Shown in pieces: positions 12,433 through 45,527 of a DNA stretch of 64,000 nucleotides (positions within the stretch are counted from its first letter, which is position 1; every line of letters starts with the position of its first letter). The stretch is from Nanobdellota archaeon (GTDB taxonomy: Archaea > Nanobdellota > Nanobdellia > Pacearchaeales > GW2011-AR1). The DNA is taken from NCBI GenBank assembly GCA_030641715.1, contig DAOWGX010000018.1:35752-99751 (forward strand). Direction: 5' to 3'. The position numbers and the translations under genes are program-made. The notes beneath the pieces were generated by a model, which worked only from the letters and a program-made list of their open reading frames with translations, made no database searches and was not told where the DNA came from.

Positions 12433-12864
12433 TTATTTTTCAGCATCGTTCTTTTTAGAAACAGCATAATCTTCTAAAATCTTTTCTTTTACGCTTTCTA
12501 ACTCCCCCTTACCAAGATAACATGCCCCAATTATAAAAGAACACATAACACCAACCAGGCCTAAACCAAACCCAAGACGAGAGTGATAATTCCTTTTTTC
12601 ATAATCATGTATCTCAGTCCTAGATTTTTCATCAGAGACAATAGTATTATATTCCGTAGCCATTTCCAAGTCAATTGGATTATATTCTCCTCTCCCCATC
12701 TTGTTATAATCTGGAAATGCACGATGAATTTCTCCACTCAACTCGTGTACTTTTCGGACCAAGGGGGAAGGATTCGGAATCGAAGAAGAACTATATGCTC
12801 CATAACCAAAACTTAAAGTACCTACCAGCATCAACGATGCCCCCAAGTGTTTAAATTTCCCCAT
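12433..12864 (-). CDS. inserted two-TM membrane protein whose C-terminus derives from the S7 3' end
   Basis: 143-aa ORF between S7 and EF-2; ends ..DYAVSKKNDAEK, compared with the S7 end ..SYAVSKRNDAEKQADAAR. Confidence 0.6.
   Translation of the reverse strand: MGKFKHLGASLMLVGTLSFGYGAYSSSSIPNPSPLVRKVHELSGEIHRAFPDYNKMGRGEYNPIDLEMATEYNTIVSDEKSRTEIHDYEKRNYHSRLGFGLGLVGVMCSFIIGACYLGKGELESVKEKILEDYAVSKKNDAEK
12436..12469 (-). repeat. copy of rps7 3' end (29/34 nt identical to 12962-12995)
   Basis: hand alignment: tttttcagcatcgttctttttagaaacagcataa vs tttttcggcatcattcctttttgaaacagcgtaa. Confidence 0.75.
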
Positions 12865-12940
12865 AGTAAATTAAAATAATTTAACCTTATAAGAATAATT
12901 ATACTGGGGTGTATATTAAAATCTTCGACAAGAATTAAAA

Positions 12941-13534
12941 TTACCGAGCCGCGTCAGCCTGTTTTTCGGCATCATTCCTTTTTGAAACAGCGTAACTCTC
13001 TGAACTCCCTTCCGCTGCAGACATCAACTCTTTAGATAATGCTTCGACGATTGTCGCTTTTTTGTTGAATGCTTTATCGTAAGATCCATTAATTATATAC
13101 CGAAGAACTAAATTCAATCTTCTCCTTGGAGAGACATCAACAGTCTGAGGATATCTCGCACCACCATATTCAATCGTGGTCACGGTATCTCTTGGAGCTC
13201 CATTCTCAATGGCTTTGACCAAAATTTTCAAAGGATTCTCCCCTGTTTTCTTTTCGATTATTTTAAGTGCATCAATTACAATTTTAGTGCATTGTGCCTG
13301 CTTCCCTGTAATTCGTCCGGTAATGATTTTATGCTTCTTCCCTCGCGAACCAGGGACTTGTAGTAGATTTATCAGTCTCTCGATGACATTAACTTTTTCT
13401 CTCGCCGGGTCCCATTTAATTCTTCCGTGTGATTTCAACATTAACTTGGGATTTAGATTGATAACTTTTTTTAAACCGGGGTCTTCTACTCGAACTTCGG
13501 AGATGTCGAACAGACCGAAAACTTTCATTTCCAT
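12941..13534 (-). CDS. rps7: 30S ribosomal protein S7 (uS7)
   Basis: archaeal S7 sequence and operon position. Confidence 0.95.
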   Translation of the reverse strand: MEMKVFGLFDISEVRVEDPGLKKVINLNPKLMLKSHGRIKWDPAREKVNVIERLINLLQVPGSRGKKHKIITGRITGKQAQCTKIVIDALKIIEKKTGENPLKILVKAIENGAPRDTVTTIEYGGARYPQTVDVSPRRRLNLVLRYIINGSYDKAFNKKATIVEALSKELMSAAEGSSESYAVSKRNDAEKQADAAR

Positions 13535-13537
13535 TTT

Positions 13538-13744
13538 TTAAGATGAACCCTCCTTGTCTGATTCCATTTTAATTTTCTTTATCGCCTCGAAAATATCTCC
13601 CCCACCATAATCCTGGATTAACTGAGCATTTCTAGCTTTCACAACTGGATCATGAGGATTTACAGACTCATAATTAAATTCGTCATTATCATCACTTCCA
13701 ACATTATTCCTTCTATAACTCTCACGAATAGATCTCTCCATCAT
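13538..13744 (-). CDS. acidic 68-aa ORF wedged between S12 and S7
   Basis: ATGA overlap with the S12 stop; ends 3 nt before the S7 ATG; no recognisable family. Confidence 0.45.
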   Translation of the reverse strand: MMERSIRESYRRNNVGSDDNDEFNYESVNPHDPVVKARNAQLIQDYGGGDIFEAIKKIKMESDKEGSS

Positions 13745-14163
13745 CTCCGCCCCTTCTCAATCTTTCCAGACCAAAGTCTAGCCAAAGGCTGATCATTTAC
13801 TTTAATAACCTGAAACCTCACACCTGACAAATCTCCCTTCGTCCGTCCTTGCTTTCCGCCGATTCTTTCAATTACAACTTCATCATGCTCGTCGACAAAT
13901 TTCTGCGCTAAGTTTCCGGGAATAAAGGCTGTAACTTCTTTGCCGTTTTTTATTAATTGAACTCTGCAGCATTTCCTCATGGCTGAGTTAGGTTGCTTAG
14001 CTTCTTTCTGGATTTTTTTTATAACAATACCCTTAGCTTGTGCTGCCCGTCCAATCGGATCGAACTTCAAACTAATTCCAAGCCGCTTTTTTTTAGCAGG
14101 CAGTTTATTATCTCTAAACTTCTTTCTCGCGTTCTTTAATTTTAATGCATTCATTAATCCCAT
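13741..14163 (-). CDS. rps12: 30S ribosomal protein S12 (uS12)
   Basis: KQPNSAMRKCCRVQLIKNGKEVTAFIPG signature. Confidence 0.95.
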   Translation of the reverse strand: MGLMNALKLKNARKKFRDNKLPAKKKRLGISLKFDPIGRAAQAKGIVIKKIQKEAKQPNSAMRKCCRVQLIKNGKEVTAFIPGNLAQKFVDEHDEVVIERIGGKQGRTKGDLSGVRFQVIKVNDQPLARLWSGKIEKGRR

Positions 14164-14200
14164 TGTATAAATTAAGTGAAAGTTCCTTTTATAAATTTAC

Positions 14201-14653
14201 CTACACAATTCGTAGTTTGGTAATTTTAAAAAAATTTTTTAAAACTTCAGACAGTTCTTTTTCTCTTTGACGACCTCTTCCAATCAAAGCCGCTTTGTTT
14301 TGACGACCTGCGTTGATTACTGCAGAATTCTCTTTTATTTCAATTTTATTAAATTCAACAGGGCTGATAACCGCTTCAACAAATTTTCCAATTTCTTCAT
14401 TAAGGTTTTTGTCGTCGTGTTCCGAGGGAGTATTCGTTGGTGGCATTGCCACAACTCTGATTTTCTTGCCCAAAATATTATTGATTTTCTTGACATTTAC
14501 AGCGCCTCTTCCGATTGCCATCGAAACTTGTTGTTTAGGTACTGCAAAAACTATCTGATTATTATAAACAAAGCATTTTGTCGTCGGAATTCTAGTCACT
14601 TTTGCAAATAGATTAATGTATCTCATTAATTGCATATCAATAGTTCCGGCCAT
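14201..14653 (-). CDS. nusA: archaeal NusA-like (two KH domains) transcription termination/antitermination factor
   Basis: size, KH GxxG motifs (GRGAVN, GRGRQ) and conserved operon position. Confidence 0.85.
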   Translation of the reverse strand: MAGTIDMQLMRYINLFAKVTRIPTTKCFVYNNQIVFAVPKQQVSMAIGRGAVNVKKINNILGKKIRVVAMPPTNTPSEHDDKNLNEEIGKFVEAVISPVEFNKIEIKENSAVINAGRQNKAALIGRGRQREKELSEVLKNFFKITKLRIV

Positions 14654-14654
14654 C

Positions 14655-21970: not shown

Positions 21971-21996
21971 ATGGCTCCGTAGCTCAGTCTGGTTAG
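21971..21996 (+). repeat. orphan copy of the tRNA-Lys 5' part (acceptor 5' strand to D-loop)
   Basis: atGGCTCCGTAGCTCAGtCTGGTTAG, 25/26 identical to 22046-22071; no matching 3' half follows. Confidence 0.8.
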
Positions 21997-22047
21997 TCGC
22001 TTCGCTCTCGAGCAAGCTCGAAACCAGCCGTGAGTTCTGTTGCTATA

Positions 22048-22122
22048 TGGCTCCGTAGCTCAGCCTGGTTAGAGCACTGGACTTTTAATCCAGGTGTCGG
22101 GGGTTCAAATCCCCTCGGGGCC
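22048..22122 (+). tRNA. tRNA-Lys (anticodon UUU)
   Basis: hand-folded cloverleaf: 7-bp acceptor, GCTC/GAGC D stem, CTGGA/TCCAG anticodon stem, loop CTTTTAA, GGGGG/CCCCT T stem, GTTCAAATC T loop; no encoded CCA. Confidence 0.93.
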
Positions 22123-22188
22123 ATTTGATTTGAAGTATAATTAACTGAGATTATATAGTTTTAAATAATCTAGTTTATGTTGTTTTTT

Positions 22189-30270: not shown

Positions 30271-30351
30271 AGTACCTAATCTTAGGTGATAGTCCAGTTA
30301 GAAACCAAAACAAATATAAACCTGATTGCATACATGATTCTACTTTAAGTC

Positions 30352-30392: not shown

Positions 30393-30405
30393 TCGAGGTA
30401 TTTTT

Positions 30406-34055: not shown

Positions 34056-34082
34056 ATAACTTTTAGGTTTTGTTTTGGTATG
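34003..34082 (+). repeat. 80-nt unit T, copy 1 (3' end of ORF 33279-34055 + TATA + ATG)
   Basis: 75/80 identical to copy 2; contains TATA gtttaaataa (34050-34059) centred 25.5 nt upstream of ATG 34080. Confidence 0.9.
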
Positions 34083-34652: not shown

Positions 34653-34723
34653 TTCGTAAACAGACTCCGTATTCTTTGCTTGAGAGACAGGTTTAAATAA
34701 CTTTTAGGTTTTGTTTTGATATG
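34644..34723 (+). repeat. 80-nt unit T, copy 2
   Basis: hand alignment, 75/80 to copy 1 and 74/80 to copy 3. Confidence 0.9.
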
Positions 34724-35293
34724 CAAAAGTGTACTACATTTTTTGATTATCTAAAAAAAACGTGTGACCCAAAGATTGCATATGGGAGATTAGATACACA
34801 TAGTTATCGCCCTAATGATTACGGCAATATATCGAATGAGGCAAGGGAGTTAATCATTAGTGCAGAGGAGAATGTAACTCTGTTTATCAGTGACCCCCTT
34901 CCTAGGTTTTTGATATATGATTCTGATAAAGTCATAAGGGCTATTTCTGAAGTTTCAGATTTTGTGAATGTTAAGATTCTATTAAAAAGAAGCGAGGATT
35001 CCAAAGAAGTAGATGATTTAATAAAGAGGCTCAATGACGCTGGTTACCAGAATAAGAATGGTCAAATAGGGGTTTTAGATAAGAGTGCAATTGGAAATGA
35101 TCGTCTCAGAGAAGATTACTTTATTGTAACTGATAGCCGAAATGTTTTTTGGAAAAAATCTATTTATGATATTGCGGAATTTATTTATGATGTGCCTTTG
35201 CTTGGGGAGAAACTGGAATCCCAAGTTGGGCTCTTGGAAGCTAAATATAAGGACAATGTAGGGTATAAAAATATATCTGGTATGAGTTTGTAA
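34721..35293 (+). CDS. 190-aa cassette protein, paralog B
   Basis: tandem paralog of 34080-34652. Confidence 0.6.
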   Translation: MQKCTTFFDYLKKTCDPKIAYGRLDTHSYRPNDYGNISNEARELIISAEENVTLFISDPLPRFLIYDSDKVIRAISEVSDFVNVKILLKRSEDSKEVDDLIKRLNDAGYQNKNGQIGVLDKSAIGNDRLREDYFIVTDSRNVFWKKSIYDIAEFIYDVPLLGEKLESQVGLLEAKYKDNVGYKNISGMSL

Positions 35294-35364
35294 TTCGTAA
35301 ACAGACTCCATATTCTTTGCTTGAGGGGCAGGTTTAAATAACTTTTAGGTTTGGTTTTGGTATG
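35285..35364 (+). repeat. 80-nt unit T, copy 3 (supplies promoter and ATG of the DUF357 gene)
   Basis: 74/80 identical to copy 2. Confidence 0.9.
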
Positions 35365-35643
35365 AAGAATGAGATTAGTGCTGAGAAGTTAAGGAAGTAT
35401 TTTGATTTGACTGAGGAGGCGTTTGTCGAGGTGAAGAAGAATATTTTTGAGGGAAAGGAAGTTGAGGCGAAGGAGATTATTGAGATGGTTGGGAATTATG
35501 TTTCGGATGCGCATCATTTTGAGGCGAAGGGTGATTGGGTTAATGCTTTTGCGGCGTTGAATTATGCGCATGGTTGGTTGGATTGTGGGGTGAAGACGAG
35601 GGTTTTTGATGTTGGGGATGATAGGTTGTTTACTGTTTGTTGA
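35362..35643 (+). CDS. DUF357-family archaeal protein
   Basis: ..HHFEAKGDWVNAFAALNYAHGWLDCG.. matches the remembered DUF357 pattern. Confidence 0.6.
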   Translation: MKNEISAEKLRKYFDLTEEAFVEVKKNIFEGKEVEAKEIIEMVGNYVSDAHHFEAKGDWVNAFAALNYAHGWLDCGVKTRVFDVGDDRLFTVC

Positions 35644-35844
35644 TTCGATAGATATATAAATTGAGAGTGCTTTTTTAATTTATGGCGATAAGAAAGGAAG
35701 GTCCTGGGAAATGAATTTTGATAATACCGGTATAGCCTTATAAGGTTCCAAAATCTATATGAATCAAAATTACTTATTTGGTCTATGAATTTAAATAAAG
35801 ATGGTCCAGCTATTTGAGAAACCTATAGTAGGTTTTTGAAAATG

Positions 35845-35874
35845 GATTCAATAAATATATAAAGCTAAATTACT
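35845..35874 (+). repeat. orphan copy of the pyrH promoter region
   Basis: gattcaataaatatataaagctaaattact, 28/30 identical to 36414-36443. Confidence 0.8.
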
Positions 35875-35883
35875 TGTTTAATT

Positions 35884-36078
35884 TTAAAGAAGATTATTGC
35901 CTAGTTCGGATAGTTTTGCGGTCGGATACATCTTATCAAAATTAAAGCCATGTTCAATCAATCCAATAAGTGTAAATCTGTCTAGAACAGTTTTATCTGA
36001 TTCTTCAATTCTTTTTCTTGTTTTATACTTTGTTAAAACTTCTGTTTCGTATTTTTCAAAAATGGGTCTTTGCTTCAT
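35884..36078 (-). CDS. hypothetical 64-aa protein (cassette gene 2)
   Basis: ORF overlapping the upstream 92-aa ORF by 4 nt. Confidence 0.4.
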   Translation of the reverse strand: MKQRPIFEKYETEVLTKYKTRKRIEESDKTVLDRFTLIGLIEHGFNFDKMYPTAKLSELGNNLL

Positions 36079-36353
36079 ATTATTATTTCCTGTTTTAAAA
36101 TATACAATTGTTTTAATTTTATATCCAGTTCTCTCACGTACTCTCCATATAAGGAACTTTTCAAATTTTTTATCTTATCCGCATATTGTATTCTTATTTC
36201 ATCATAAGGTCTATTAAATTTTTTTTGGAGAACATTTTTTATTTCATCATTTAATACTCTACTCATATTTGCTTTACTCTCTTTAAATTCATGAATCGTT
36301 TCGTCTATTTCTGATTCGCGGGTAAGTAATTGTCTTAGGTCTTTTTTGCTCAT
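36075..36353 (-). CDS. hypothetical 92-aa protein (cassette gene 1)
   Basis: ORF; two-gene minus-strand unit bracketed by the 30-nt repeats. Confidence 0.4.
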   Translation of the reverse strand: MSKKDLRQLLTRESEIDETIHEFKESKANMSRVLNDEIKNVLQKKFNRPYDEIRIQYADKIKNLKSSLYGEYVRELDIKLKQLYILKQEIII

Positions 36354-36413
36354 TTGTTTTTAAGAACATCTTTGCTTATATGTTTTTCTAAGGGCTAATT
36401 TGGGAGGGTTATT

Positions 36414-36443
36414 GATTCAATAAATATATAAATCTAAATTGCT
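36414..36443 (+). promoter_or_regulatory. pyrH promoter (functional copy of the 30-nt repeat)
   Basis: TATA atatataaat (36424-36433) centred 25.5 nt upstream of ATG 36454. Confidence 0.6.
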
Positions 36444-36453
36444 CATTCAGTAT

Positions 36454-37137
36454 ATGGAAAAAGTTTGGGTGATTTCACTTGGTGGTTCGAGGATTGTTCC
36501 CGACGAGGTTGATGAGAAATTCCTCTTGAGATTTAAAAAGCTGATTGATTCGCATCCTTCTCATAAGTTTGTTGGTGTTACTGGGGGTGGTTCTACTGCT
36601 CGGAGGTATATTTCAGCGTTGAGGAAGCTGGGGAAGACGACGAAGTCGCAGTCTGTTTCGGGGATTGCGATTACGAGGCTTCATGCAGAATTTATGGCGA
36701 AGTTTTTTGGGAAGAGTGCGAATGAGGTTATTCCGAAGAGTATGAAGGATGTTAAGAATTTGCTTGGTAAGAACCAGATTGTTTTTTGCGGGGCTTTGAG
36801 GTATAGGGAGGGGAATACTTCGGATGGGACTTCTGCGAAAATTTCGGCTTATCTTGGGTGCCCTTTTGTGAATCTTACGAATGTGAAGGGGTTGTATACT
36901 TCTGATCCTGGGAAGGATAAGGGTGCGAAGTTTATTAAGGAGATAACGTGGAAGGATTTTGAGGAGATAACGAGGAAGATGAAATTTAAGGCGGGGCAGC
37001 ATTTTGTTCTCGATCAGTCTGCGGCGAAGGTGATTTTGAGGGAGAAGATTCCGACTTATATTGTTGGCTCTTTGGCGGCGATTGATAAGATTTTGAAGGG
37101 GAAGAAGGATTTCGGGGGGACGTTGATTTCGGGATGA
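36454..37137 (+). CDS. pyrH: UMP kinase (archaeal type)
   Basis: VISLGGS..VTGGGSTAR.. amino-acid-kinase fold typical of archaeal PyrH. Confidence 0.85.
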   Translation: MEKVWVISLGGSRIVPDEVDEKFLLRFKKLIDSHPSHKFVGVTGGGSTARRYISALRKLGKTTKSQSVSGIAITRLHAEFMAKFFGKSANEVIPKSMKDVKNLLGKNQIVFCGALRYREGNTSDGTSAKISAYLGCPFVNLTNVKGLYTSDPGKDKGAKFIKEITWKDFEEITRKMKFKAGQHFVLDQSAAKVILREKIPTYIVGSLAAIDKILKGKKDFGGTLISG

Positions 37138-37192
37138 AAGGTGATTTTATTTAAAACAGAACATTTATATATAAGTTTATATAGGAGTATAT

Positions 37193-37462
37193 ATGAGATT
37201 ATCTAATTTGAAAATAATTCATTATCCAAATTTGAAGACTATTTTAGCGATTGAAAAAGTTCTGAAGGATGCAGAGTTGGTGATTAGTCGGGAAGAAATT
37301 AAGAGACGGCTTCCGATGAAAATAATGCACCAGACTTTGAATTTGATACTTGATTATTTCGAAGAAAGAAATATGATTGTCGACGGGCATAAAGGGATTT
37401 TATGGATAAAAAACGATAGTCCTAAGTTAAGGGAAGCGATTAGAAAGGGGACTGAAATTTAA
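37193..37462 (+). CDS. putative antitoxin / small DNA-binding protein
   Basis: 89-aa ORF overlapping (TAATG) the downstream RelE/ParE-like gene. Confidence 0.4.
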   Translation: MRLSNLKIIHYPNLKTILAIEKVLKDAELVISREEIKRRLPMKIMHQTLNLILDYFEERNMIVDGHKGILWIKNDSPKLREAIRKGTEI

Positions 37463-37827
37463 TGAATAAAGAAGTAGAAATAATTTTGTCGGAAGAGGTG
37501 AGTAAGCAGTATGAAGAATTGAATAGGATTGTCGGCGAGGAAATAGAGAAAGGGGTTGAGTCTTCTTTTCACCAATCTCTTTTGAGGGCGATAAATCGAA
37601 TTAAGGAACTGTTAAGACAAAATCCTTTTTTGGGAAATCAGGTACATAAAAGATTGATTCCGAGAGAATACTTAAATAAGTATGGGGTGGATAATTTATG
37701 GAGAGTTGAGTTGCCGAATCGGTGGAGGCTATTGTATAGTGTGTATGGTGGGAAGCTAAAGATAACTAATTTCGTGTTGGATTTTTTTGACCACAAGAAA
37801 TATAATAAGCTATTCAAATATAATTAA
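37462..37827 (+). CDS. RelE/ParE-superfamily toxin-like protein
   Basis: ..NLWRVELPNRWRLLYSV..ILDFFDHKKY resembles the RelE/ParE core. Confidence 0.55.
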   Translation: MNKEVEIILSEEVSKQYEELNRIVGEEIEKGVESSFHQSLLRAINRIKELLRQNPFLGNQVHKRLIPREYLNKYGVDNLWRVELPNRWRLLYSVYGGKLKITNFVLDFFDHKKYNKLFKYN

Positions 37828-38427: not shown

Positions 38428-39966
38428 ATGGATGAAAAATTGCTCGTGAAGTTTTTGTCTCCGATTGAAAGGGCGACGCTTCCTAAGTTGGGTCTAGATT
38501 TCTCCGATTTGGAGGATGTTGCAAAGAAGACCTCTCAGGATAGGACGACGGTGCTTAGGGCGGTTGGGTTTTTGAAGAATAAGGGTTTGATTGAAATGGA
38601 GAGTTCTGAGAAGGAAGTTGTTAGTTTGGGGATTCTGGGGATTTATTATTTGAGGAAGGCTTTGCCGGAGAGGGTGCTTTTGAATAAGCTTGTGGAAAAG
38701 AAGGCGATTTTGATTAGTGAGATTAGGAATGTTTGCGGGTTGAATGATAATGAGGCGAAGATTGCGTTGGGGACGTTGAAGAGGAAAGCACTTGTGAGTA
38801 TTGCTAGTGGGAAGTTGAGTCTTAGTGCGAAGCCGACCGAGGTTACGAATAAGATGCTTGAGGAGTTATTTCTTGAGAAGTTGCCGCTTGAACTTGATTT
38901 GTTGGAGGCGCAGGATAAGTTGGCGTTGCAGAATCTGAAGTCGCGGAAAGATATTGTTAGTGTTGAGAATCAAAAGAAGATTGGTGTTAGGTTGACTAAG
39001 TTGGGTGAGAAGATTTCGTCGATGAATTTGAGGAAGGATTTGGTTGAGCAGTTGACTCCGAAAATGATAAAGCAGAATAGTTGGAAGGGGAAGGAGTTTA
39101 GGAGGTACGATTTGTCGTTGCCGGTTCCGAAGGTTTACGGGGGGAAGAGGCATTTTGTGAATCAGGCGATTGATTATGCGAAGTCTATTTGGTTGGAGAT
39201 GGGGTTTAAGGAGATGACTGGGAGCAAGATTGATACGGGTTTTTGGGTTTTTGATACGTTGTTTACTGCGCAGGATCATCCGGTGAGGGAGATGCAGGAT
39301 ACGTTTTATCTTAAGGGTATGGAAGGGAAGTTGCCGACGAGGTGTAAGAAAAAAGAGGATTGTATTTTGTTTAAGACGCAACAGTCGCATGAGGGGGGAA
39401 TTGATGGGAGTAAAGGTTGGCAGTATAAATGGGATGAGGAGAGCGCGAAGAAGGTTTTGATGAGAACGCATACGACGTCGCTGTCGGCGAGAAAGCTTCG
39501 GGAGATTAGGGATACGAAGGAATTTCCTGCGAAGTATTTTGCGATTGGGAAGTGTTTTCGGAATGAGACTGTTGATTGGTCGCATGGGTTTGAGTTCAAT
39601 CAGACTGAGGGGATTGTCGTCGATGAGAATGCGAATTTCAGGCAGTTGCTTGGGTATTTGATTCAGTTTTATAAGAAGATGGGGTACGAGAAGATTAGAA
39701 TTAGACCTGCGTATTTTGCGTATACCGAGCCGTCGTTGGAGGTTGATGTTTTTCATCCGGTGCATAAGAAATGGGTCGAGCTTGGGGGCGCGGGGATGTT
39801 TCGACCAGAGGTTACGATTCCGATGTTTGGGAGGCACGTTCCGGTTTTGGCGTGGGGGCAAGGATTTGACAGGATTATTACGGAGTTTTTTGGGATTAAT
39901 GATTTGCGGGAAGTTTACAAGAATGATATAAATAAATTGAGAGAGATGAAGTTTTGGAGGAAATGA
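38428..39966 (+). CDS. pheS: phenylalanine--tRNA ligase alpha subunit
   Basis: HPVREMQDTFY, FRNETVDWSHGFEFNQTEG class II motifs; archaeal/eukaryal length. Confidence 0.93.
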   Translation: MDEKLLVKFLSPIERATLPKLGLDFSDLEDVAKKTSQDRTTVLRAVGFLKNKGLIEMESSEKEVVSLGILGIYYLRKALPERVLLNKLVEKKAILISEIRNVCGLNDNEAKIALGTLKRKALVSIASGKLSLSAKPTEVTNKMLEELFLEKLPLELDLLEAQDKLALQNLKSRKDIVSVENQKKIGVRLTKLGEKISSMNLRKDLVEQLTPKMIKQNSWKGKEFRRYDLSLPVPKVYGGKRHFVNQAIDYAKSIWLEMGFKEMTGSKIDTGFWVFDTLFTAQDHPVREMQDTFYLKGMEGKLPTRCKKKEDCILFKTQQSHEGGIDGSKGWQYKWDEESAKKVLMRTHTTSLSARKLREIRDTKEFPAKYFAIGKCFRNETVDWSHGFEFNQTEGIVVDENANFRQLLGYLIQFYKKMGYEKIRIRPAYFAYTEPSLEVDVFHPVHKKWVELGGAGMFRPEVTIPMFGRHVPVLAWGQGFDRIITEFFGINDLREVYKNDINKLREMKFWRK

Positions 39967-39978: not shown

Positions 39979-40812
39979 ATGAAAACATTGTCGATAAAAC
40001 AACCGTGGGCAGAACTAATTTTACAAGGAAGAAAAAAAATAGAAATTAGAAAGTGGAACACTAATTTTAGAGGAGAATTTTTAATCCATAGTTCACAAAT
40101 TCCAGATAAAGAATCTATGGAAAAATTTGGATTTAGGAACCTTCCTCTTGGGTTTATTGTTGGAAAGGTAAAATTGATTAATGTAAAAATATATGAGAAT
40201 GATGAAGAGTTTTTAGGGGATGAGAATTTGCATTTAGCGGGAAAAGGATGGGGAAACAAAGGATTTATATTAAAGGACCCTCAAAGGATAAAGAAAATTA
40301 AAGCCAAAGGGAATCTTGGTTTTTGGGAATTTGGTGAAAAAACAACCCTAGAACAACAGGTAAAATTAGCAAGTTCTTCTGAAGAGATTGTAGAAATCTA
40401 TAAATATATCAAACCATTTAATCTGGATTATCCTGATTATGACGAGTGGGTTGAGAAATGTAAAAAAGAATTAGAATCCGATTATAAAAAAGCCTATTAT
40501 GTTAAAAAAGGTTCTGATATATCAGGGGTTATTATCTTTCAACCATATAAAAAGGGAGGAGATATGTTAGAAATAAAAAATTTTAGGGTTTCTTTAGCAG
40601 ATAAAAAAGAAGGTATTGGATCATTGTTATATAATTCATTAGAACTGTATGCTAAAAAACAAAATTTTAAAATAATCCAAGTAGATACCCATAGTGATGG
40701 GATGGTTGAGTTTCTTTTAAAGAAAGGTTTCAATATTATCAAAAAAGAAACATTATATTCTCCTTCACAAATGGAAACGATTTTGCAAAAAAATATTGGA
40801 GATAAAAAATGA
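39979..40812 (+). CDS. ASCH domain - GNAT acetyltransferase fusion protein
   Basis: N-terminal MKTLSIKQPWAELILQGRKKIEIR (ASCH); C-terminal IKNFRVSLADKKEGIGSLLYN..LLKKGF (GNAT motif A). Confidence 0.7.
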   Translation: MKTLSIKQPWAELILQGRKKIEIRKWNTNFRGEFLIHSSQIPDKESMEKFGFRNLPLGFIVGKVKLINVKIYENDEEFLGDENLHLAGKGWGNKGFILKDPQRIKKIKAKGNLGFWEFGEKTTLEQQVKLASSSEEIVEIYKYIKPFNLDYPDYDEWVEKCKKELESDYKKAYYVKKGSDISGVIIFQPYKKGGDMLEIKNFRVSLADKKEGIGSLLYNSLELYAKKQNFKIIQVDTHSDGMVEFLLKKGFNIIKKETLYSPSQMETILQKNIGDKK

Positions 40813-41243
40813 CAAGATTAACTATTAGGAAGGTTGGGAAAAAGAAAGAGAAGGTTTTGGAGAAAATTGTAAAAATGAAAGTTAAAATTGAAAGTATAAA
40901 TAAGGGTCCTTTTAGAAGTAAGTTTACTTTTGGAAAGAGTTGGGAGGTTGTCGATGCTATTGATAATATCTTGGAAAAAGTAGGGCTTCTTGATACTCAG
41001 AGTCATGGATTAAGGGATGAAATAATATATGGTTGTGAACCTGGACCTCAGATAGAGATTAGTAAGTTTGTTGATGAAGTTTATAATCTAGGAATGTATG
41101 ATTTAGAGAATGGAGTTTATTTTATCGATGTCTTTTTAGGGAGAAAAAAAATAATTTTAATTGTAAGGACAAAGGAAGATAAACAAAAGGAAATTTCTGA
41201 AGCTGTGTTTGAATTTGCGGATTTTGAGGGAGAGTTAATGTGA
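40809..41243 (+). CDS. hypothetical protein
   Basis: 144-aa ORF; its stop TGA lies inside the first pheT-start remnant (aatGTGAcaatact). Confidence 0.4.
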   Translation: MTRLTIRKVGKKKEKVLEKIVKMKVKIESINKGPFRSKFTFGKSWEVVDAIDNILEKVGLLDTQSHGLRDEIIYGCEPGPQIEISKFVDEVYNLGMYDLENGVYFIDVFLGRKKIILIVRTKEDKQKEISEAVFEFADFEGELM

Positions 41244-41295
41244 CAATACTAACATTAAATAAAAAAGAATTGGAAAAGAAAGTTGGAAAGATTAC
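41240..41295 (+). repeat. remnant copy 1 of the pheT 5' end
   Basis: 49/55 nt identical to 42445-42499; start codon changed ATG to GTG; would encode VTILTLNKKELEKKVGKIT.. Confidence 0.9.
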
Positions 41296-41349
41296 TACAT
41301 TTAAGTTGCTAGATGATTTTTACCTTTATGAAATCATGAAAGGAGGTAG

Positions 41350-41359
41350 GTTTAAATAT
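41350..41359 (+). promoter_or_regulatory. TATA box of the RelE-type TA operon
   Basis: gtttaaatat centred 25.5 nt upstream of ATG 41380. Confidence 0.5.
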
Positions 41360-41379
41360 CTTTAAGACATTGATAAAAA

Positions 41380-41577
41380 ATGGAACAAGTAACTCTCGAG
41401 AGTGTTAATAGGAATGTTATAGCTTTGCGTGAAGCTGTCGAAAAAATGAGAGAGGTTTTGTTGGAGGATAGTTTGGAGCTTAGTGATGAAGTGGTCGAGG
41501 AGATTGAGAGGTCGCGAAGTGCACCTAAAAGTGATTTTATTTCTCAGGAAGATGTTGAGGCTGAATTTCTTAAATGA
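41380..41577 (+). CDS. putative antitoxin
   Basis: 65-aa acidic ORF overlapping the RelE-like gene by 4 nt. Confidence 0.5.
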   Translation: MEQVTLESVNRNVIALREAVEKMREVLLEDSLELSDEVVEEIERSRSAPKSDFISQEDVEAEFLK

Positions 41578-41828
41578 TGATTAGAATTGTTTGGTATAAG
41601 GAAGCACTTGATTTTTTAAAAAAGTTAGATAATAATATTTCTGAAAGGATTGTGAAAAAGATAAAGGATGTAAGATTAAATCTTGAGAGATATGTTTTTT
41701 CTCTGGTGGATATGGGTGTATCAAAAATTAGGGTCGGAGATTATAGGCTTTTTGTAAATTATTATCAAGAGAATGAGGAGCTTGTTATTCATTCAATTAA
41801 ACATAGGAAAAACGCTTATAAAAAATGA
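41574..41828 (+). CDS. RelE/ParE-family toxin
   Basis: ..IRVGDYRLFVNY..VIHSIKHRKNAY typical RelE/ParE C-terminus; stop TGA lies in pheT-start remnant 2. Confidence 0.7.
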   Translation: MMIRIVWYKEALDFLKKLDNNISERIVKKIKDVRLNLERYVFSLVDMGVSKIRVGDYRLFVNYYQENEELVIHSIKHRKNAYKK

Positions 41829-41856
41829 CGATACTTGCTGTTGATAAAAAAGAATT
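41825..41856 (+). repeat. remnant copy 2 of the pheT 5' end
   Basis: ATGACGATACTTGCTGTTGATAAAAAAGAATT, 27/31 identical to 42444-42474. Confidence 0.8.
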
Positions 41857-41880
41857 AAATTTGATGAAGCCTTGGAGGGA

Positions 41881-42447
41881 ATGATGGAAATTGAAGCTGT
41901 ATTATTTGATATTGGGGGGGTTTTGTTGGAGGATCCTAGGCTTGGGGATTTTTGGAAAGGGAGTGATGAATCCAGGATCTTAAGGGAAAGATTTGGGACA
42001 GGTAAGATTTCTGAAGAAGATTTTGTTAAGGAAGGTTCTAAAATTTTGGATGTTTCTCCAGAAGAATTTAGGGAGGGTTATGAGGATGCTTATTCTGTTG
42101 GGGCTATTGAGGATTCCTTAAGAGTTTATGATTCTGTGAATGTGCCGAGGTATATATTTTCTGATACAAATCCTATTCATGCTAAGTATATCTGGGAAAG
42201 ATTTAAACCTATGTTTGAGAAATCAAAAGGAATTTATTTTTCTTATGAGATTGGCATTCGGAAGAGTGATCCCGAGAGTTTTAAGATTGCTCTTAAGGGG
42301 ATGGATGTGCCTGCAGGGTCGGTGCTCTTTATTGATAATAAATTGGCTTTATTGGATGTTGCGAAGTCTGTTGGGATGAAGGCGTTGCTATATCGAAATT
42401 CGGAACAGTTGAGGATGGATTTAGAAGAAAGGGGGTTGATTAAATGA
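41881..42447 (+). CDS. HAD-superfamily hydrolase
   Basis: motif I AVLFDIGGVLL; ..LFIDNK.. motif-IV-like; ATGA overlap with pheT. Confidence 0.7.
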   Translation: MMEIEAVLFDIGGVLLEDPRLGDFWKGSDESRILRERFGTGKISEEDFVKEGSKILDVSPEEFREGYEDAYSVGAIEDSLRVYDSVNVPRYIFSDTNPIHAKYIWERFKPMFEKSKGIYFSYEIGIRKSDPESFKIALKGMDVPAGSVLFIDNKLALLDVAKSVGMKALLYRNSEQLRMDLEERGLIK

Positions 42448-44153
42448 CAATACTTACTGTTAATAGAAAAGAATTGGAAAAGAAAGTTGGGAAGATTACG
42501 GAGGGGATGGAAGATAAGATTACTGAAATGGGGACGCCGATTGAAGAAGTTACCGAGGACGAATTGTCGGTTGAGGTTTTTCCGAACAGGCCGGATTTGT
42601 TGTCGCTTGGAAATTTTGCTAGAGCTGTTAATCAGTTTAATGGCAAGGGAAAGATTGCGAATTTTAAAGTCAATAAGCCGGAGAAGGATTATGTTGTTAC
42701 GATTGATAGTTCTGTGAAGGTTGTTAGACCTCATACTGTTTGTGCGATTGTAAAGGGTTTGAAGTTTACCGACGAGAAGATTAAGGAGATAGTTGATATT
42801 CAGGAGAAGTTGCATAATTCTATTGGGAGGAAGAGGAAAAAGTTGGCGATTGGGATTTACCCTCTTGACAAGATTGCGTTGCCGATTCGGTTCGTGGCGA
42901 AAAAACCGGAGGAGATAAAATTTTTGCCGTTGGAAGCTAGTCGGGAGATGACTGGAATGCAGATTCTTCGAGGGCATCCGGCAGGGAGGGAGTATGCACA
43001 TTTGCTCGAGAGTGAGAACGTTTTTCCGATTTTTGTCGATGCTGAGGATAAGGTTTTGAGTATGCCACCAATTATTAATTCTCATGAGACTGGAAGGATT
43101 GACGAAAAGACGCGTGAGATTTTTATTGAGTGTTCGGGGCATAATTTGGCTTATTTGAAAAAGTGTTTGAATATTATTCTTGCTACGATTTATGAGATGG
43201 GTGGCAAGATTTATGAGATGAATATTAGGGATTCGAGAGATGGGAATTTTGTTTCTCCGAATATGACTTGTGAGGAATTGAGTTTTGAAATTAAAAATAT
43301 CGAGAGGACACTAGGTATAAAACTGGGTGAGAAGGATGTTAGGAGTTATTTGGGTCGGATGGGTATTGGTTATGAAAATCGGGCACGTAATAGTGTACCT
43401 TCTAAATTAGGAAATAGATTTCCATCTTCATCGGGCAAGGGGAAGTCGGTTGCATTGATCCCTGCTTATCGGGCAGACATTTTGCATTGGATTGATTTGA
43501 CGGAGGAGATTGCGATTGCTTATGGTTACGAAAATTTTGAACCTGAGATTCCAGATATTTCGACGATTGCGTTTGAAGATTCTGTCGGGAAGACGAAGCG
43601 GATTATTGGAGAAATTCTTGCAGGGCTTGGGTTTTTAGAGACGTCGTCATTTCATTTGACGACGAAGAAAGATGTCAGGAAGATGCATTTTGATTATAAT
43701 GATTTTATTGAAGTCGAGGATTCGAAGACGGGGCGGGATGTTCTTCGGATGGATATGTTGACGAATCTTTTGCAGATTTTGTCGGAGAATTCAGATGCAG
43801 GGTATCCTCAGAAGATTTTTGAAATGGGTCAGGTTTTTTCGAGAAGTGGTTCGGAAAATTCAGGGACTGGTGTCGATGAGATTGAGAGGTTGGCTGTTGT
43901 GTTGATTAATGAGAAGGCGAATTTTACTGAATTGAAACAGGCTGTTGATTATTTGTTTAAGATGCTTGGGAAAGAGTATGCTCTTGAGAATGTTGAGAAT
44001 TCAAATTATATTATTGGACGGTGCGGGAAGGTTGTTGTCTACGGGAAGAGTGTTGGATTTATCGGTGAAGTTGCTCCGAGAGTTTTGAAGAATTGGAAAA
44101 TTAAAATGCCGACGGTTGCGATGGAAATTGATTTGGGGTTTTTGTTTCAATAA
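42444..44153 (+). CDS. pheT: phenylalanine--tRNA ligase beta subunit
   Basis: archaeal PheT B3_4/B5 architecture (FPNRPDLLS, RPHTVCAIV, PPIINSHETG). Confidence 0.93.
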   Translation: MTILTVNRKELEKKVGKITEGMEDKITEMGTPIEEVTEDELSVEVFPNRPDLLSLGNFARAVNQFNGKGKIANFKVNKPEKDYVVTIDSSVKVVRPHTVCAIVKGLKFTDEKIKEIVDIQEKLHNSIGRKRKKLAIGIYPLDKIALPIRFVAKKPEEIKFLPLEASREMTGMQILRGHPAGREYAHLLESENVFPIFVDAEDKVLSMPPIINSHETGRIDEKTREIFIECSGHNLAYLKKCLNIILATIYEMGGKIYEMNIRDSRDGNFVSPNMTCEELSFEIKNIERTLGIKLGEKDVRSYLGRMGIGYENRARNSVPSKLGNRFPSSSGKGKSVALIPAYRADILHWIDLTEEIAIAYGYENFEPEIPDISTIAFEDSVGKTKRIIGEILAGLGFLETSSFHLTTKKDVRKMHFDYNDFIEVEDSKTGRDVLRMDMLTNLLQILSENSDAGYPQKIFEMGQVFSRSGSENSGTGVDEIERLAVVLINEKANFTELKQAVDYLFKMLGKEYALENVENSNYIIGRCGKVVVYGKSVGFIGEVAPRVLKNWKIKMPTVAMEIDLGFLFQ

Positions 44154-44212: not shown

Positions 44213-44797
44213 TTGATAATGGTGAAGGTGTCGCATGTTGTTTTTGGGATTATGGTTGTTTTGGTGATTCTTTTTGGGTTGCTTTTTGTTTTTGGGGATG
44301 AGGTTTTGCGAGTTGTAGATGATGTAATGTCTTCGGGGGGTAGCTCTAGTTCGGAAAATATTGTAGATGATGGAGACGTGGGAGTGGTTAGTGAAGCTGG
44401 AGGAGTTGAAGGTTCGGATGTTGGTGGGAGTGAGTCTGGAGATGTGGGGGAAGTAGCTGATTGTAGGATGCAACAAGTCCAATATTCTTTAAAGAATTTC
44501 AAAAATAGCGTCGAGTGTACGGATATGGGAGAGGTCGGATGTACTAGAGTTGTTGTGAGTTGTTCTATGGAAGTTTATAGTTTCTATGATGGCGTCGGTG
44601 TTTTCGGGATAAGGTACGCTTTGGTTGATTCTGATGATGAAGAGTTGGATTTTGAGTTGATTGAAAAAGAAGTTGAATTTGGGACGCCGGTGGTTTTTTC
44701 GACAGAGTTTGTCAGGAGTGATATGTCTGGTGTTGATGAGGATTTGAGTTGTCCGTTTACTGTTGAGACGGTTCCTCTAAGAGAAGTTTGTAACTAG
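44213..44797 (+). CDS. membrane-anchored secreted protein with Gly/Ser/Asp-rich linker
   Basis: N-terminal TM (VVFGIMVVLVILFGLLFVF), low-complexity linker, Cys-containing C-domain. Confidence 0.45.
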   Translation: MIMVKVSHVVFGIMVVLVILFGLLFVFGDEVLRVVDDVMSSGGSSSSENIVDDGDVGVVSEAGGVEGSDVGGSESGDVGEVADCRMQQVQYSLKNFKNSVECTDMGEVGCTRVVVSCSMEVYSFYDGVGVFGIRYALVDSDDEELDFELIEKEVEFGTPVVFSTEFVRSDMSGVDEDLSCPFTVETVPLREVCN

Positions 44798-44804
44798 GAT
44801 GTTA

Positions 44805-45284
44805 TTAGCCGAAGTAGCCACGTTCTTTTGAACTATTGTCTTCTTCAATGTTTTCATCGAATTTTTCGATAATATTGTAAATTATTTTTTTCAAGTCTTG
44901 CCATTCGTTAAAAGAATTCTCAATGAATTCTGTTTCTGCTTGTTCGGAATAAATCGTGTCTAGCTTTATAGCTTTAATTTGTAACTTTGAAAGTTTTTTG
45001 TAAACTTCTTTGATTTTCTTTTTGTTGTCTTCGTCGATTCCTCTCAGGATGGAGAACATAAACATCGGGGTTGCTGTTGGATTGAGAAGTGTTTCAAATA
45101 GATGGGTATATGCCGAAAGTTTTTCGTTGATTGTTCTTCGGATTTCTCTGATTAGGAAGAGAGATTCTTTGTCTATTGTTTTTTCGATATCGAAATCTTC
45201 CGATAATTCTTTGAAGTCGGGCAACTCGTATTTTTGTTTAAGTTTGTCGTAAGTTACGGCGAGATCGAAGTCTTTATTTTCCAT
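44805..45284 (-). CDS. hypothetical acidic protein
   Basis: 159-aa ORF; ATG 45284 is 25.5 nt from the symmetric TATA at 45305-45314. Confidence 0.45.
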   Translation of the reverse strand: MENKDFDLAVTYDKLKQKYELPDFKELSEDFDIEKTIDKESLFLIREIRRTINEKLSAYTHLFETLLNPTATPMFMFSILRGIDEDNKKKIKEVYKKLSKLQIKAIKLDTIYSEQAETEFIENSFNEWQDLKKIIYNIIEKFDENIEEDNSSKERGYFG

Positions 45285-45304
45285 GGTTAATTCACCAGGA
45301 GAGC

Positions 45305-45314
45305 ATTTATAAAT
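45305..45314. promoter_or_regulatory. palindromic TATA shared by minus gene 44805-45284 and tRNA-Thr
   Basis: atttataaat; exact 25.5-nt spacing to ATG 45284; predicts a plus-strand TSS about 7 nt before the tRNA. Confidence 0.5.
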
Positions 45315-45341
45315 TTAGGGGGTGGGAGATTAGTGTGCTAT

Positions 45342-45414
45342 GCCTGATTAGCTCAGTTGGTAGAGCGTCGCATTGGTAATGCGGAGGTCGTGGGTTCAAT
45401 CCCCATGTCAGGCT
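45342..45414 (+). tRNA. tRNA-Thr (anticodon GGU)
   Basis: hand-folded cloverleaf: GCCTGAT/GTCAGGC acceptor, GCTC/GAGC D stem, loop TTGGTAA, GTGGG/CCCAT T stem, TTCAATC loop. Confidence 0.92.
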
Positions 45415-45512
45415 TTATAGAACACACGACAGTTGTGGGCGAAAGATTTGCTTTGAACAAAAATGATCTAAATTTTGTATATTTTATTTTTGAGAGATGC
45501 AAACTGTGAGTA

Positions 45513-45527
45513 AATCCCCATGTCAGG
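45513..45527 (+). repeat. second copy of the tRNA-Thr 3' 15 nt (att-like)
   Basis: aatccccatgtcagg identical to 45398-45412, 115 nt downstream. Confidence 0.6.

Follow-up and report, generated by a model that had tools for sequence, protein, structure and literature searches.

Copies of core-gene ends border stacked gene cassettes at conserved gene junctions in a Pacearchaeales genome

DPANN archaea have tiny, streamlined genomes with few recognisable mobile elements and highly variable accessory genes, which raises the question of how new genes are acquired. This question takes a concrete form in a 64,000-nt stretch of the genome of a Nanobdellota archaeon (Pacearchaeales; GenBank assembly GCA_030641715.1, contig DAOWGX010000018.1, positions 35,752 to 99,751), henceforth referred to as the window. 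At several places in the window, small inserts between conserved genes are bordered by copies of the end of the neighbouring core gene. A sequence-only reading had listed six repeats of this kind, and blastn-short comparison, profile searches and shuffle tests confirmed that all six lie where it placed them, far beyond chance expectation. We propose that the repeats are scars of units that carried the edges of their core-gene neighbours, rather than attachment sites of an element-encoded enzyme. The process that would best account for them is a recombinase-free, homology-anchored additive recombination combined with tandem duplication, resembling the minimal mobile elements of Neisseria except that the units stack. 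We give this reading a probability of roughly 0.55. Our confidence in its structural part, namely flank-bearing units arranged head to tail with no dedicated recombinase, is moderate to good.

The window was compared with two sets of 80 loci, those around pheS taken from genomes and those around S7 from metagenomes, which are labelled here with L-numbers. The closest relatives of the window's pheS and S7 are metagenome-assembled genomes (MAGs) of Pacearchaeota, Woesearchaeota and Nanoarchaeota, and the window is a DPANN chromosome of the Pacearchaeota/Woesearchaeota type. The 64-kb window was compared with itself by blastn-short, and the copy of the S7 3' end was analysed with an nhmmer profile and shuffle tests. 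The Pfam scan covered 43 open reading frames (ORFs), a part of those in the window, and the PHROGs scan covered ten cassette proteins. Coordinates are those of the window unless a relative is named, and window features lie on the forward strand unless stated otherwise.

The most informative locus lies between pheS (38428..39966; 46-90% amino acid identity to relatives) and pheT (42444..44153; Pfam PF17759, PF03484 and PF03483). The last ~45 nt of pheS, referred to as S, recur within cassette arrays (profile match at 39919-39964, E 1e-13), and the first ~59 nt of pheT are the live copy, T3, of a second repeat, T (nhmmer E 2e-16). Three cassettes had been counted between the two genes; we found four. 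Cassette 1 (39979..40812; guanine-plus-cytosine (GC) content 0.29) encodes ASCH plus GNAT acetyltransferase (PF04266 and PF00583), its stop codon overlaps the following ATG (ATGA), and it was not found at the pheS|pheT junction in any of the 80 relatives. Cassette 2 (40809..41243) is u144, encoding a 144-aa protein of unknown function whose homologues occupy this junction in L003 (76%) and L005 too. Its first ~19 nt (ATGACAAGATTAACTATTA) resemble a decayed pheT start (weak profile match at 40809-40827, E 0.42), and its stop codon is provided by T1 (41240..41298), a ~58-nt copy of the pheT 5' end (nhmmer E 1.6e-14). In the self-comparison, T1 matches the live pheT start over 55 nt at 89% identity (41241-41295 versus 42445-42499, E 1e-12). 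Cassette 3 (41299..41828), a toxin-antitoxin module, has an upstream region of its own with a TTTAAATA box. A 65-aa antitoxin-like ORF (41380-41577) is followed in it by a ParE/RelE toxin gene (41574-41828; PF05016, PHROG RelE-like); the module, upstream region included, recurs at the pheS|pheT junction of L003, and part of it in L015. The toxin takes its stop codon from T2 (41825..41856), a 32-nt copy of pheT nucleotides 1-32 (nhmmer E 2.6e-4; in the self-comparison 34 nt at 88%, 41823-41856 versus 42442-42475, E 5e-4). T2 runs directly into 28 nt copied from the pheS 3' end (41857..41884; nhmmer E 0.021), so that the two form a composite T|S linker. This S copy corresponds to the last ~33 nt of pheS minus a 5-nt deletion, and its TGA and the ATG of cassette 4 overlap; cassette 4 (41881..42447; PF00702) encodes a HAD-family hydrolase and has its stop codon within the pheT ATGA. 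Thus u144, ParE and HAD all end at the TGA of a pheT-start (A/G)TGA. The sequence-only reading had overlooked composite internal junctions such as 41825-41856 | 41857-41884. Among the ten cassette proteins searched against PHROGs, the RelE-like toxin was the sole match, and there was no sign of viral origin.

T1 differs at 2 of 56 positions from the pheT start of L003 and at 7 of 56 from the window's own pheT start. This is suggestive of either an imported flank or an ancestral snapshot, for a region that is too short and conserved to tell these apart. Five of the seven differences between T1 and T3 fall at an A in T1, whereas other repeat families have mixed substitutions. A diversity-generating retroelement with template and variable repeats was considered and rejected: no reverse transcriptase was found, the mismatches as a whole show no preference for A, and the start of an essential gene would have to be the 'variable' copy.

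Is this array an oddity of one contig? The relatives differ at this junction: in L006, L007, L009, L013, L018 and others, pheS and pheT overlap or are spaced by 1-6 nt, and in L001-L005, L008, L010-L012, L014-L017, L019 and L022 they are separated by 0.3-2.8 kb with differing genes. The occupied junctions hold one to six small genes, including MazG-like, PNPOx-like, NUDIX, u144, alpha/beta hydrolase and HAD genes and a toxin-antitoxin pair. The sequence-only reading had suggested looking for empty sites in sister genomes, and the pheS-pheT, DUF357 and S7-EF2 junctions are indeed empty or differently filled there. Composite linkers are present in the window (T32|S28, named by fragment length), in L003 with the same breakpoints, in L005 (T25|S37, and T33 joined to a degenerate S) and in L011 (T42|S14). 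The window linker is colinear without gaps with L003 4197-4254, the 5-nt deletion included. Linkers of the T32|S28 type have different neighbours in each genome, sitting between ParE and HAD in the window, between u144 and MazG in L003 and, in decayed form, between the hydrolase and HAD2 in L005; the linker was found in three MAGs of separate records (the window, JAYEHV01 and JAGLIS01). The T25|S37 linker of L005 is independent and lies between PNPOx and the hydrolase, and this genome carries S-only and T-only scars too. Single cassettes with native flanks are also found (pheS-MazG-pheT in L001 and pheS-PNPOx-pheT in L002), and the same cassettes inside arrays bear the matching scar (S-MazG in L003 and L005, PNPOx-T25 in L005). 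Based on the linker anatomy and these scars, the arrays parse as S-cassette-T units joined head to tail. The other loci of the window, described below, parse likewise: orf258 3' end, promoter and ATGCAAAA followed by a p190 gene, twice, ahead of DUF357; DUF357 stop and promoter followed by an insert, twice, ahead of pyrH; and an insert followed by the S7 3' end, after S7.

In all five composite linkers the pheT 5' fragment stands ahead of the pheS 3' fragment. This order bears on whether the repeats could be long target-site duplications of a transposition-like insertion, made by staggered cuts 25-100 nt apart through a transposase, a casposase, a Cas1-like enzyme or chance nicks. Such cuts predict S|T-insert-S|T, whereas the arrays show insert-T|S-insert, and the T-before-S order excludes target duplication by staggered cuts for the linkers. 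Single inserts within one duplicated segment would fit this explanation (pheS|pheT of L049, the orf258|DUF357 and S7|EF2 loci of the window, and L055), and the repeat duplication by Cas1-Cas2 at CRISPR loci establishes that duplications of ~30 nt are enzymatically possible. Against this, the duplicated segments are highly variable in length, and 12 of 13 repeats with a start codon have that codon within 8 nt of the repeat edge. One duplication boundary is therefore a gene boundary, which is expected if cassettes arrive abutting a core gene and is not predicted by free-floating staggered cuts. Insert ends showed no terminal inverted repeats, just 71-79% low-complexity matches, and the window ORFs scanned included no transposase, casposase or Cas1. 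In addition, homologous cassettes of different genomes sit at the same type of junction in 93 of 94 pairs, and cassettes were not found at differing junctions. We consider staggered cutting a scarcely credible source of these repeats.

A second enzymatic explanation is the one put forward by the sequence-only reading, that small circular cassettes carrying a copy of their target (attP equal to attB) are integrated by a dedicated tyrosine or serine recombinase, or by an integron-like integrase, encoded elsewhere. The T-insert-T geometry does resemble attL and attR, and the arrays resemble integron cassette arrays built of promoterless, co-oriented, single-ORF units. The 3' ends of tRNA genes, a classical integrase target, are among the repeats, with tRNA-Thr affected in several relatives, and the inspection covered only 64 kb of the genome. 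However, each locus has an unrelated repeat, and the only motif shared between loci is a short TGATTCRA, seen by eye at the orf258|DUF357 and DUF357|pyrH loci. Boundaries vary even at a single locus: in various events and genomes, the pheT fragments at pheS|pheT measure 13, 25, 32, 41, 42, 56, 93 and 102 nt, and no single att core explains the pheT|pheS composite linkers. Two of the T|S joins fall in microhomology between pheT and pheS (TAAATAAA in L005; GAGAAGAAGGTTGG versus GAGATGAAGTTTTGG in L011). The linkers showed no hairpin and no attC-like fold (z -0.6 to +1.2 versus shuffles). As the earlier reading had noted for the 64 kb, no recombinase was found, nor any transposase, reverse transcriptase or Cas1, by Pfam in the 43 window ORFs scanned; no integrase was seen in the inserts of relatives by ORF content, which was not a systematic scan. 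The proposed attP-attB or integron-like capture is not supported, given the locus-specific repeats, breakpoints of 13-102 nt and the lack of attC folds and terminal inverted repeats. Of the circle-integration geometry, one part stands: Campbell-type integration by the host's homologous recombination is one compatible route, whereas a dedicated enzyme is not supported. We regard a site-specific system as very unlikely.

Assembly artefacts are the more mundane concern. The rationale for suspecting them is that all genomes compared here are metagenome assemblies, in which strain-mixture chimeras or collapsed repeats, as well as chance similarity, could mimic duplications; repeats produced by scaffolding at runs of N do occur in the relatives. 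The sole other contig with the loci of the window, L081, was rejected as independent confirmation because it is 100% identical to the window across 12.85 kb and therefore represents the same assembly or population. Every significant direct repeat in the window (E<0.001) is local, with copies less than 1.3 kb apart, and the sole significant inverted repeat spans 27.6 kb. Several results oppose an origin by chance or artefact. E-values in the window reach 1e-23 and beyond, and the copies are diverged (75-94% identity), which assembly artefacts do not yield. For the lineage we counted repeats across 1.28 Mb of sequence from relatives, leaving aside N-gap artefacts as well as long alignments of tandem or paralogous copies; local direct repeats numbered 86 versus 8 inverted ones, and both copies fell at gene termini in 15 cases versus 1.6 expected. 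We also surveyed 274 core junctions with well-defined ends, of which 109 were occupied, defined as holding 250-6000 nt of extra DNA. Copies of the junction's own flanks were detected at 15 of the 109, compared to 0 in reverse-complement controls. Chance or artefact as the origin of the repeats is rejected by the E-values, the excess of direct over inverted repeats and these controls, and the same T32|S28 linker stands in three MAGs; we put the probability of this explanation close to nil.

The core-gene joints pheS|pheT, orf258|DUF357, DUF357|pyrH, pyrH|g200, S12|S7 and S7|EF2 are true insertion hot spots in an otherwise strongly conserved gene order; in relatives these joints are either empty (0-37 nt) or filled with other small cassettes. 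In the window their cassettes are toxin-antitoxin pairs, HAD, GNAT and NYN proteins and ORFans, to which the relatives add MazG, NUDIX, PNPOx and alpha/beta hydrolase. Inserts are more AT-rich than flanking core genes, with a mean GC content of 0.33 versus 0.41 (Mann-Whitney p 1.4e-4), although the contrast of about 25% with 43% given earlier from short samples was overstated.

Could the arrays have arisen within one genome, with no import of DNA? In this explanation, junctions with vertically inherited cassettes are duplicated in tandem, after which the copies are lost, replaced or drift apart in sequence. The T|S join is exactly the join point of a tandem duplication, and the orf258|DUF357 locus is in part an example of the process. 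The conserved core gene orf258 (33279..34055) contributes its last 52 nt to a repeat unit that continues with a TATA-like box and ATGCAAAA. Copies of this unit lie at 34002..34087, at 34643..34728 (94% identical to the first) and at 35284..35369, the last in its native position ahead of the DUF357 gene (35362-35643; PF04010). The self-comparison thus returned a 79-86-nt unit three times, starting at ~34004, 34645 and 35286, with 94% and 88% identity, and the whole 641-nt unit is a tandem duplicate (34002-35364; 722 nt at 83%). Between the copies lie the ORFan cassettes p190a (34080..34652), which takes its ATG from one unit and its stop codon 6-8 nt into the next, and its tandem paralogue p190b (34721..35293; 66% identical in amino acids, 80% in nucleotides of the ORF body). 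As had been noted before, inserted ORFs borrow their stop codon from the repeat, and reading of the loci confirmed that at this one the ATG and promoter box are borrowed too. The relatives offer further examples: L005 has two u144 paralogues (u144' and u144'') with a copy of the pheS end between them, L021, L023 and L024 carry tandem paralogue arrays, and L017 has a duplicate without a cassette.

Import-free duplication is nevertheless unlikely as an account of the whole. Adjacent cassettes are mostly unrelated (toxin-antitoxin, HAD, MazG, PNPOx, hydrolase), and duplication alone cannot yield the T-flanked single inserts at otherwise empty junctions (L049; pyrH|g200 and deaminase|g224 in the window). 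Replacement polymorphism separates near-identical strains: L120 and L123 match at the S7 3' and EF2 5' ends and have near-identical S12 and S7 gene edges, yet carry differing S12|S7 cassettes. Some cassettes are more similar than their flanks, exceeding both pheS and pheT in 11 of 56 pairs; for example, PNPOx of L002 and L048 share 70% identity with flanking pheS and pheT at 54% and 49%, and MazG of L001 and L016 share 81% with flanking subunits at 72% and 61%. Finally, at orf258|DUF357 the repeat copies are far less diverged than the adjoining cassette bodies. They differ by 6-12%, whereas p190a and p190b have a dN/dS of 0.47 and a body dS of 0.40, with both 190-codon ORFs kept; this fits either conserved flanks that recombine or gene conversion. 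The earlier caution that all cases might reduce to plain tandem duplication holds in part for this locus.

The p190 genes have no homologue except each other among 5.8e9 proteins. The orf258-DUF357 gap is 28-37 nt, an empty site, in the seven relatives checked (L003, L004, L005, L009, L013, L014 and L016), and the p190 genes are thus unique to the window. The 8-nt ATGCAAAA is common to the p190 start and the DUF357-type start of L005, and the p190 genes may have arisen recently or evolve rapidly, with a start and promoter borrowed from their neighbours by fusion.

At the next junction downstream, a unit made of the DUF357 stop and the pyrH promoter occurs three times, and not twice as first described; comparison was made with the native junctions of L003, L009 and L016. 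Copy 1 (TGATTCGATAGATATATAAAT...ATGG; 35637..35685) is followed by insert X1 (35686..35839, assigned to neither strand), ~150 nt without a convincing ORF. Copy 2 (35840..35888) is followed by insert X2 (35884..36353, reverse strand; GC 0.26-0.30), and copy 3 (36409..36457) has the native position before pyrH (36454-37137; PF00696). Copies 2 and 3 are the best pair, with 27 nt at 96% identity (E 3e-5). X2 contains two overlapping small ORFs of 64 and 92 aa in a layout that looks toxin-antitoxin-like. It had no Pfam or PHROG match and is absent in L003, L009 and L016, where the DUF357-pyrH gap is 22-33 nt.

Two further, degenerate loci have the T-insert-T form. At the pyrH stop codon lies a decayed copy of the g200 5' end (ATGAAAGGTGATTTTATTTAAAACAG; 37134..37159), recognised by eye from the native junctions (GGATGAAAGATATAAATTT...) of L003, L005, L006 and L009. 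Between pyrH and the live g200 start at 37829, an overlapping gene pair, g89 and g121, occupies 37193..37827 with its own promoter; the pair is absent in those four relatives, in which pyrH and g200 overlap. At the stop codon of a deaminase gene, a weak copy of the g224 5' end (AAAATGAAGTACCTAATCTT; 30266..30285 versus 31032-31051) has 17 of 20 matches (z 3.1). It precedes an NYN-domain cassette between deaminase and g224 (30370..31038; PF01936) that takes its stop codon in the g224 ATGA. In L005 the g224 5' end is duplicated perfectly (23 nt, 100%) around an insert.

The ribosomal region adds a locus on the reverse strand. The gene for ribosomal protein S7 (12941..13534; PF00177) is separated from EF2 by a 143-aa ORF (12433..12864) whose last 11 codons and stop come from a copy of the S7 3' end; its protein ends in ...YAVSKKNDAEK* and S7 in ...YAVSKRNDAEKQADAAR*. 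The repeat had been seen correctly, but its 34-nt extent was too short: the copy comprises ~47 nt (12428..12474, reverse strand), corresponding to about 12944-12990 in S7. It was missed by blastn and detected with the S7 3' end profile (nhmmer E 1.1e-9; z 10.7-12.6 versus shuffles). The 143-aa ORF had no homologue in the loci of the 80 relatives, among which the S7-EF2 gap ranges from 5 nt to 2.5 kb and the S12-S7 gap from 5 nt to 0.7 kb (5-9 nt in many). Wedged between S12 and S7 is x68, a 68-aa ORF (13538..13744, reverse strand) whose stop and start overlap or abut its neighbours; it had no tblastn match anywhere in the 80 relatives' loci, and no flank copy was detected.

How might such units be added without an enzyme of their own? 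In the preferred reading, homology-anchored additive recombination, DNA of a relative with another cassette at the same junction, or a sister copy of the chromosome, would pair through the conserved flanks. A double crossover would then replace the cassette, which is minimal mobile element behaviour. If instead one side were closed by an illegitimate or microhomology join, or if a circularised fragment entered by a single crossover of the Campbell type, a unit would be added. The added unit would duplicate a stretch of a core-gene terminus and leave both essential genes intact. Candidates for this additive resolution are a single crossover of a circle, an unequal illegitimate exchange between chromosomes with different cassettes, and template switching. 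The same type of join within one genome would generate tandem paralogues such as p190a and p190b. Homologous recombination at the 25-60-nt linkers and at the flanks could later shuffle or replace neighbours, and through deletion and streamlining the scars would decay or come to act as start, stop and promoter signals of the cassette ORFs. The sequences show the repeats, the empty sites, the turnover of cassettes, the T-before-S order, the variable breakpoints, linkers shared by different neighbours, locus fidelity and a lack of recombinase signatures; we infer the recombination route, the import of DNA and a selection for translational coupling.

Several considerations weigh against this scheme. 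The specific molecular route is deduced from end products only, and our confidence in it is low. The relatives are all metagenome assemblies, as noted above, and some 100%-identical repeats in them border runs of N, marking scaffolding or gap-closing artefacts (L044 3958-4167 and 9375-9692; L049 815-1024; L003 7440-7793) that should be filtered before repeats are counted in MAGs. Flank scars occur at only ~14% of the occupied junctions, so insertions are mostly scarless or scars decay, and the additive route may be a minority pathway. The locus fidelity of cassettes (93 of 94 pairs) is equally given by vertical inheritance, and cassettes that outdo their flanks in conservation could reflect slow-evolving small proteins and not transfer. 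At orf258|DUF357, the first event joined an ORFan body to an 85-nt duplication spanning the orf258 end, promoter and ATGCAAAA, and save for an 8-nt microhomology join, the origin of this first unit is unexplained by units that carry their flanks. We know of no demonstration of homologous recombination on 25-60-nt linkers in DPANN archaea, and an enzyme acting in trans could be encoded beyond the 64 kb examined.

A bolder version of the preferred reading is possible, and we hold it only tentatively. Core-gene ends could serve as portable homology arms throughout the lineage, with flank-cassette-flank units in circulation and T|S linkers acting as further recombination sites. The result would be a recombinase-free, homology-based functional analogue of integrons, active at numerous hot spots in each genome of organisms to which little recombination and mobile-element machinery is ascribed. 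In either version, accessory variation is located at core-gene junctions, and the T, S and T|S linkers would be a readable record of cassette addition. If additive recombination is correct, gene flow is channelled by the conservation of core-gene termini and not by mobile-element enzymes, which would account for locus-faithful cassettes, the build-up of toxin-antitoxin modules and birth sites of ORFans, and the linkers would make gene gain directly countable in metagenomes. A practical consequence is that annotation pipelines will call chimeric ORFs with starts or ends borrowed from essential genes.

We compared the architecture to known systems. The arrays are like integrons in that they consist mostly of promoterless, co-oriented single-gene cassettes, separated by short recurring linkers and shuffled in order among relatives, with toxin-antitoxin cassettes common; Ghaly and colleagues are said to have reported integron cassette arrays in Archaea in 2022. 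Unlike in integrons, the linkers are direct copies of core-gene ends and not imperfect palindromes, breakpoints vary, and there are many hot spots, each with its own linker. Neither an IntI-type recombinase (43 window ORFs) nor an attC hairpin (linker folds) was found. Transposons, insertion sequences and casposons do not match either, with no terminal inverted repeats, duplications of variable length (13-102 nt) and no transposase or Cas1 in the window.

Join points of tandem duplication and amplification are known from bacterial duplication-amplification and from the 'genomic accordions' of poxviruses. The T|S linker is likewise a head-to-tail join, sometimes at microhomology, and p190a/b and u144'/u144'' are true tandem paralogues. 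The difference is that adjacent units here are mostly unrelated (toxin-antitoxin|HAD, u144|MazG) and that the joins have outlasted long divergence, with genomes sharing a join whose neighbours differ. In homology-facilitated illegitimate recombination, a one-sided homologous anchor is reportedly combined with a microhomology join, as work by de Vries and Wackernagel and by Prudhomme and colleagues, both of 2002, is said to have described. This process integrates foreign DNA without an element-encoded enzyme and predicts variable breakpoints near the anchor. It differs in being known from laboratory transformation of naturally competent bacteria, not as a lineage-wide array builder, and duplication of a gene terminus on the anchor side is not its usual description.

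Campbell-type integration and tRNA-associated islands, represented by archaeal tyrosine-recombinase integrative elements (PMC8371274) and the tycheposons of Prochlorococcus (bioRxiv 10.1101/2020.12.28.424599), share the duplication of a target that brackets the insert, and successive insertions give arrays with partial target copies; the ends of tRNA-Thr and tRNA-Lys are repeated here and in relatives. In the window, however, most targets are termini or promoters of protein genes, units measure 0.05-1.3 kb, no fixed att boundaries were observed, and no integrase gene or remnant was found in the inserts. At the tRNA genes the inserts are not elements but 50-90-nt spacers that hold inverted tRNA fragments. 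Homology-facilitated illegitimate recombination and Campbell integration are the nearest mechanistic precedents.

The closest match in overall behaviour is the minimal mobile element of Neisseria (Saunders & Snyder 2002; Snyder et al. 2007), which is defined as a conserved gene pair between which alternative whole-gene cassettes without mobility genes are exchanged, after DNA uptake, by homologous recombination in the flanks (PMC3082526). The pheS/pheT pair is a variable locus in meningococci as well (PMC3082526). The junctions of the window similarly hold different cassettes or none between conserved genes, with no mobility gene found, and L120 and L123 show replacement. Minimal mobile elements differ in being described as replacement sites with one alternative set each, whereas here cassettes stack into arrays of up to six genes, and in that flank-derived repeats are atypical for them, whereas core-gene termini are duplicated here (T, S and T|S). 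Moreover, the host here is a DPANN archaeon without a known competence system. No prior description of this architecture in DPANN archaea was found in the literature searched, whose coverage was incomplete.

Two of the six repeats involve tRNA genes, and these were not inserts of the cassette type: they enclose 50-86-nt non-coding spacers and not gene cassettes. Upstream of the live tRNA-Lys(UUU) gene (22048..22124; ARAGORN and Rfam), a copy of the tRNA 5' end with a 50-nt spacer occupies 21971..22046. The repeat was described as 26 nt occurring twice with 25 matches, and it does (E 1e-4); its spacer holds an inverted copy of the D-arm (AACCAGCCGTGAG), and the upstream copy and spacer fold as a long hairpin with a z-score of only -0.6. 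Downstream of the live tRNA-Thr(GGU) gene (45342..45414; ARAGORN and Rfam), the region 45415..45541 comprises the trailer, an 86-nt spacer that opens with an inverted T-arm copy, and a second tRNA-Thr 3' end (45513-45541). This repeat is real, although the 15 nt first assigned to it were too few: it extends over 26-29 nt at 86-88% identity. It is weak alone but recurs in relatives, as a homologous structure in L003 and as analogous structures in L008, L044 and L002. Layouts of this general kind were also found in L118 and L149 (13-14-nt copies) and in L129 and L084 (3' copies). A reading of the upstream tRNA-Lys copy as a bulge-helix-bulge intron or split tRNA was rejected, since no bulge-helix-bulge pairing was seen by eye and Rfam and ARAGORN see only a complete tRNA.

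The direct-inverted-direct layout raises a last alternative for all loci, replication-based template switching of the kind described as fork stalling and template switching or microhomology-mediated break-induced replication (FoSTeS/MMBIR). A stalled nascent strand would jump by microhomology to the complementary strand, a sister copy or another DNA molecule, copy sequence there and return upstream of its exit point, leaving a duplicated terminus around a templated insert. One such mechanism would cover both local and foreign inserts, and it is consistent with the microhomology at two T|S joins, the 8-nt ATGCAAAA shared by p190 and DUF357-type starts, and the inverted tRNA-arm copies in spacers (p 0.006-0.016 in four of those tested, for matches in inverted orientation, including 0.006 for tRNA-Thr of the window and 0.01 for L118). 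The inverted-arm matches are short, however, and several are non-significant (p 0.23 for tRNA-Lys of the window and 0.49 for L092b), the hairpins could be functional RNA leaders or trailers, as a compensatory change in L092 hints, and the protein-gene loci fit break-join illegitimate recombination just as well. We know of no documentation of a FoSTeS/MMBIR-like pathway in archaea, and as a general explanation template switching appears improbable. For the tRNA loci themselves, we favour a related but local process, probably fold-back or template-switch repair that produced the direct-inverted-direct layout; alternatively, their spacers are functional leader or trailer hairpins.

Additional observations were made at the tRNA loci. 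L092 carries, at 1549-1795, the tRNA-Lys 5' 25 nt three times with 100% identity; the two intervening spacers are diverged, and the spacer hairpins differ by a compensatory pair change (GCGAT..ATCGC versus GAGAT..ATCTC). This pattern points to gene conversion acting on the tRNA fragment, to selection acting on the hairpin, or to both. The tRNA-Lys gene that lies upstream of rpoB runs opposite to it in the window, L094 and L135, and in the same direction in most relatives (L084, L087, L089 and others). This is a small local inversion polymorphism at a site that bears partial tRNA copies.

Other observations concern the protein-gene junctions of relatives. In L017 (4270-4600), the live pheT start is preceded, 197 nt upstream, by a 102-nt duplicate of itself with 99% identity, and ~95 nt lie between the copies. 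This interval holds G-rich GGTGKTAGG motifs and a short pheS-end-like remnant and no cassette, and the duplicate looks like a fresh 'empty' unit. In L049, a 31-nt hairpin-forming repeat (CCCCAGTGATCCTACGGGGTCGCTGGATGA) occurs twice, at 11569-11599 and 11674-11704, 105 nt apart and upstream of an NYN cassette at pheS|pheT; possible identities are an operator, a small RNA and a miniature element. At L148 2437-2583, the last 25 nt of S7 recur three more times downstream with a 61-nt period, as a short tandem array.

Across the window, coding strands have a very strong G-over-C skew (0.3-0.6 per kb, up to 0.7 per gene). This skew produces long spurious antisense ORFs, such as one of 378 aa antisense to pheS, and makes same-strand sequences more alike than chance models assume. 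Near the start of the window, the ORF at 107-475 (reverse strand) encodes the origin-associated protein OapC (PF09845, E 5e-25), and a replication origin may therefore lie nearby. The inverted repeat mentioned above comprises 39 nt at 92% identity, with copies at 8-46 and 27607-27645, 27.6 kb apart (E 1e-8).

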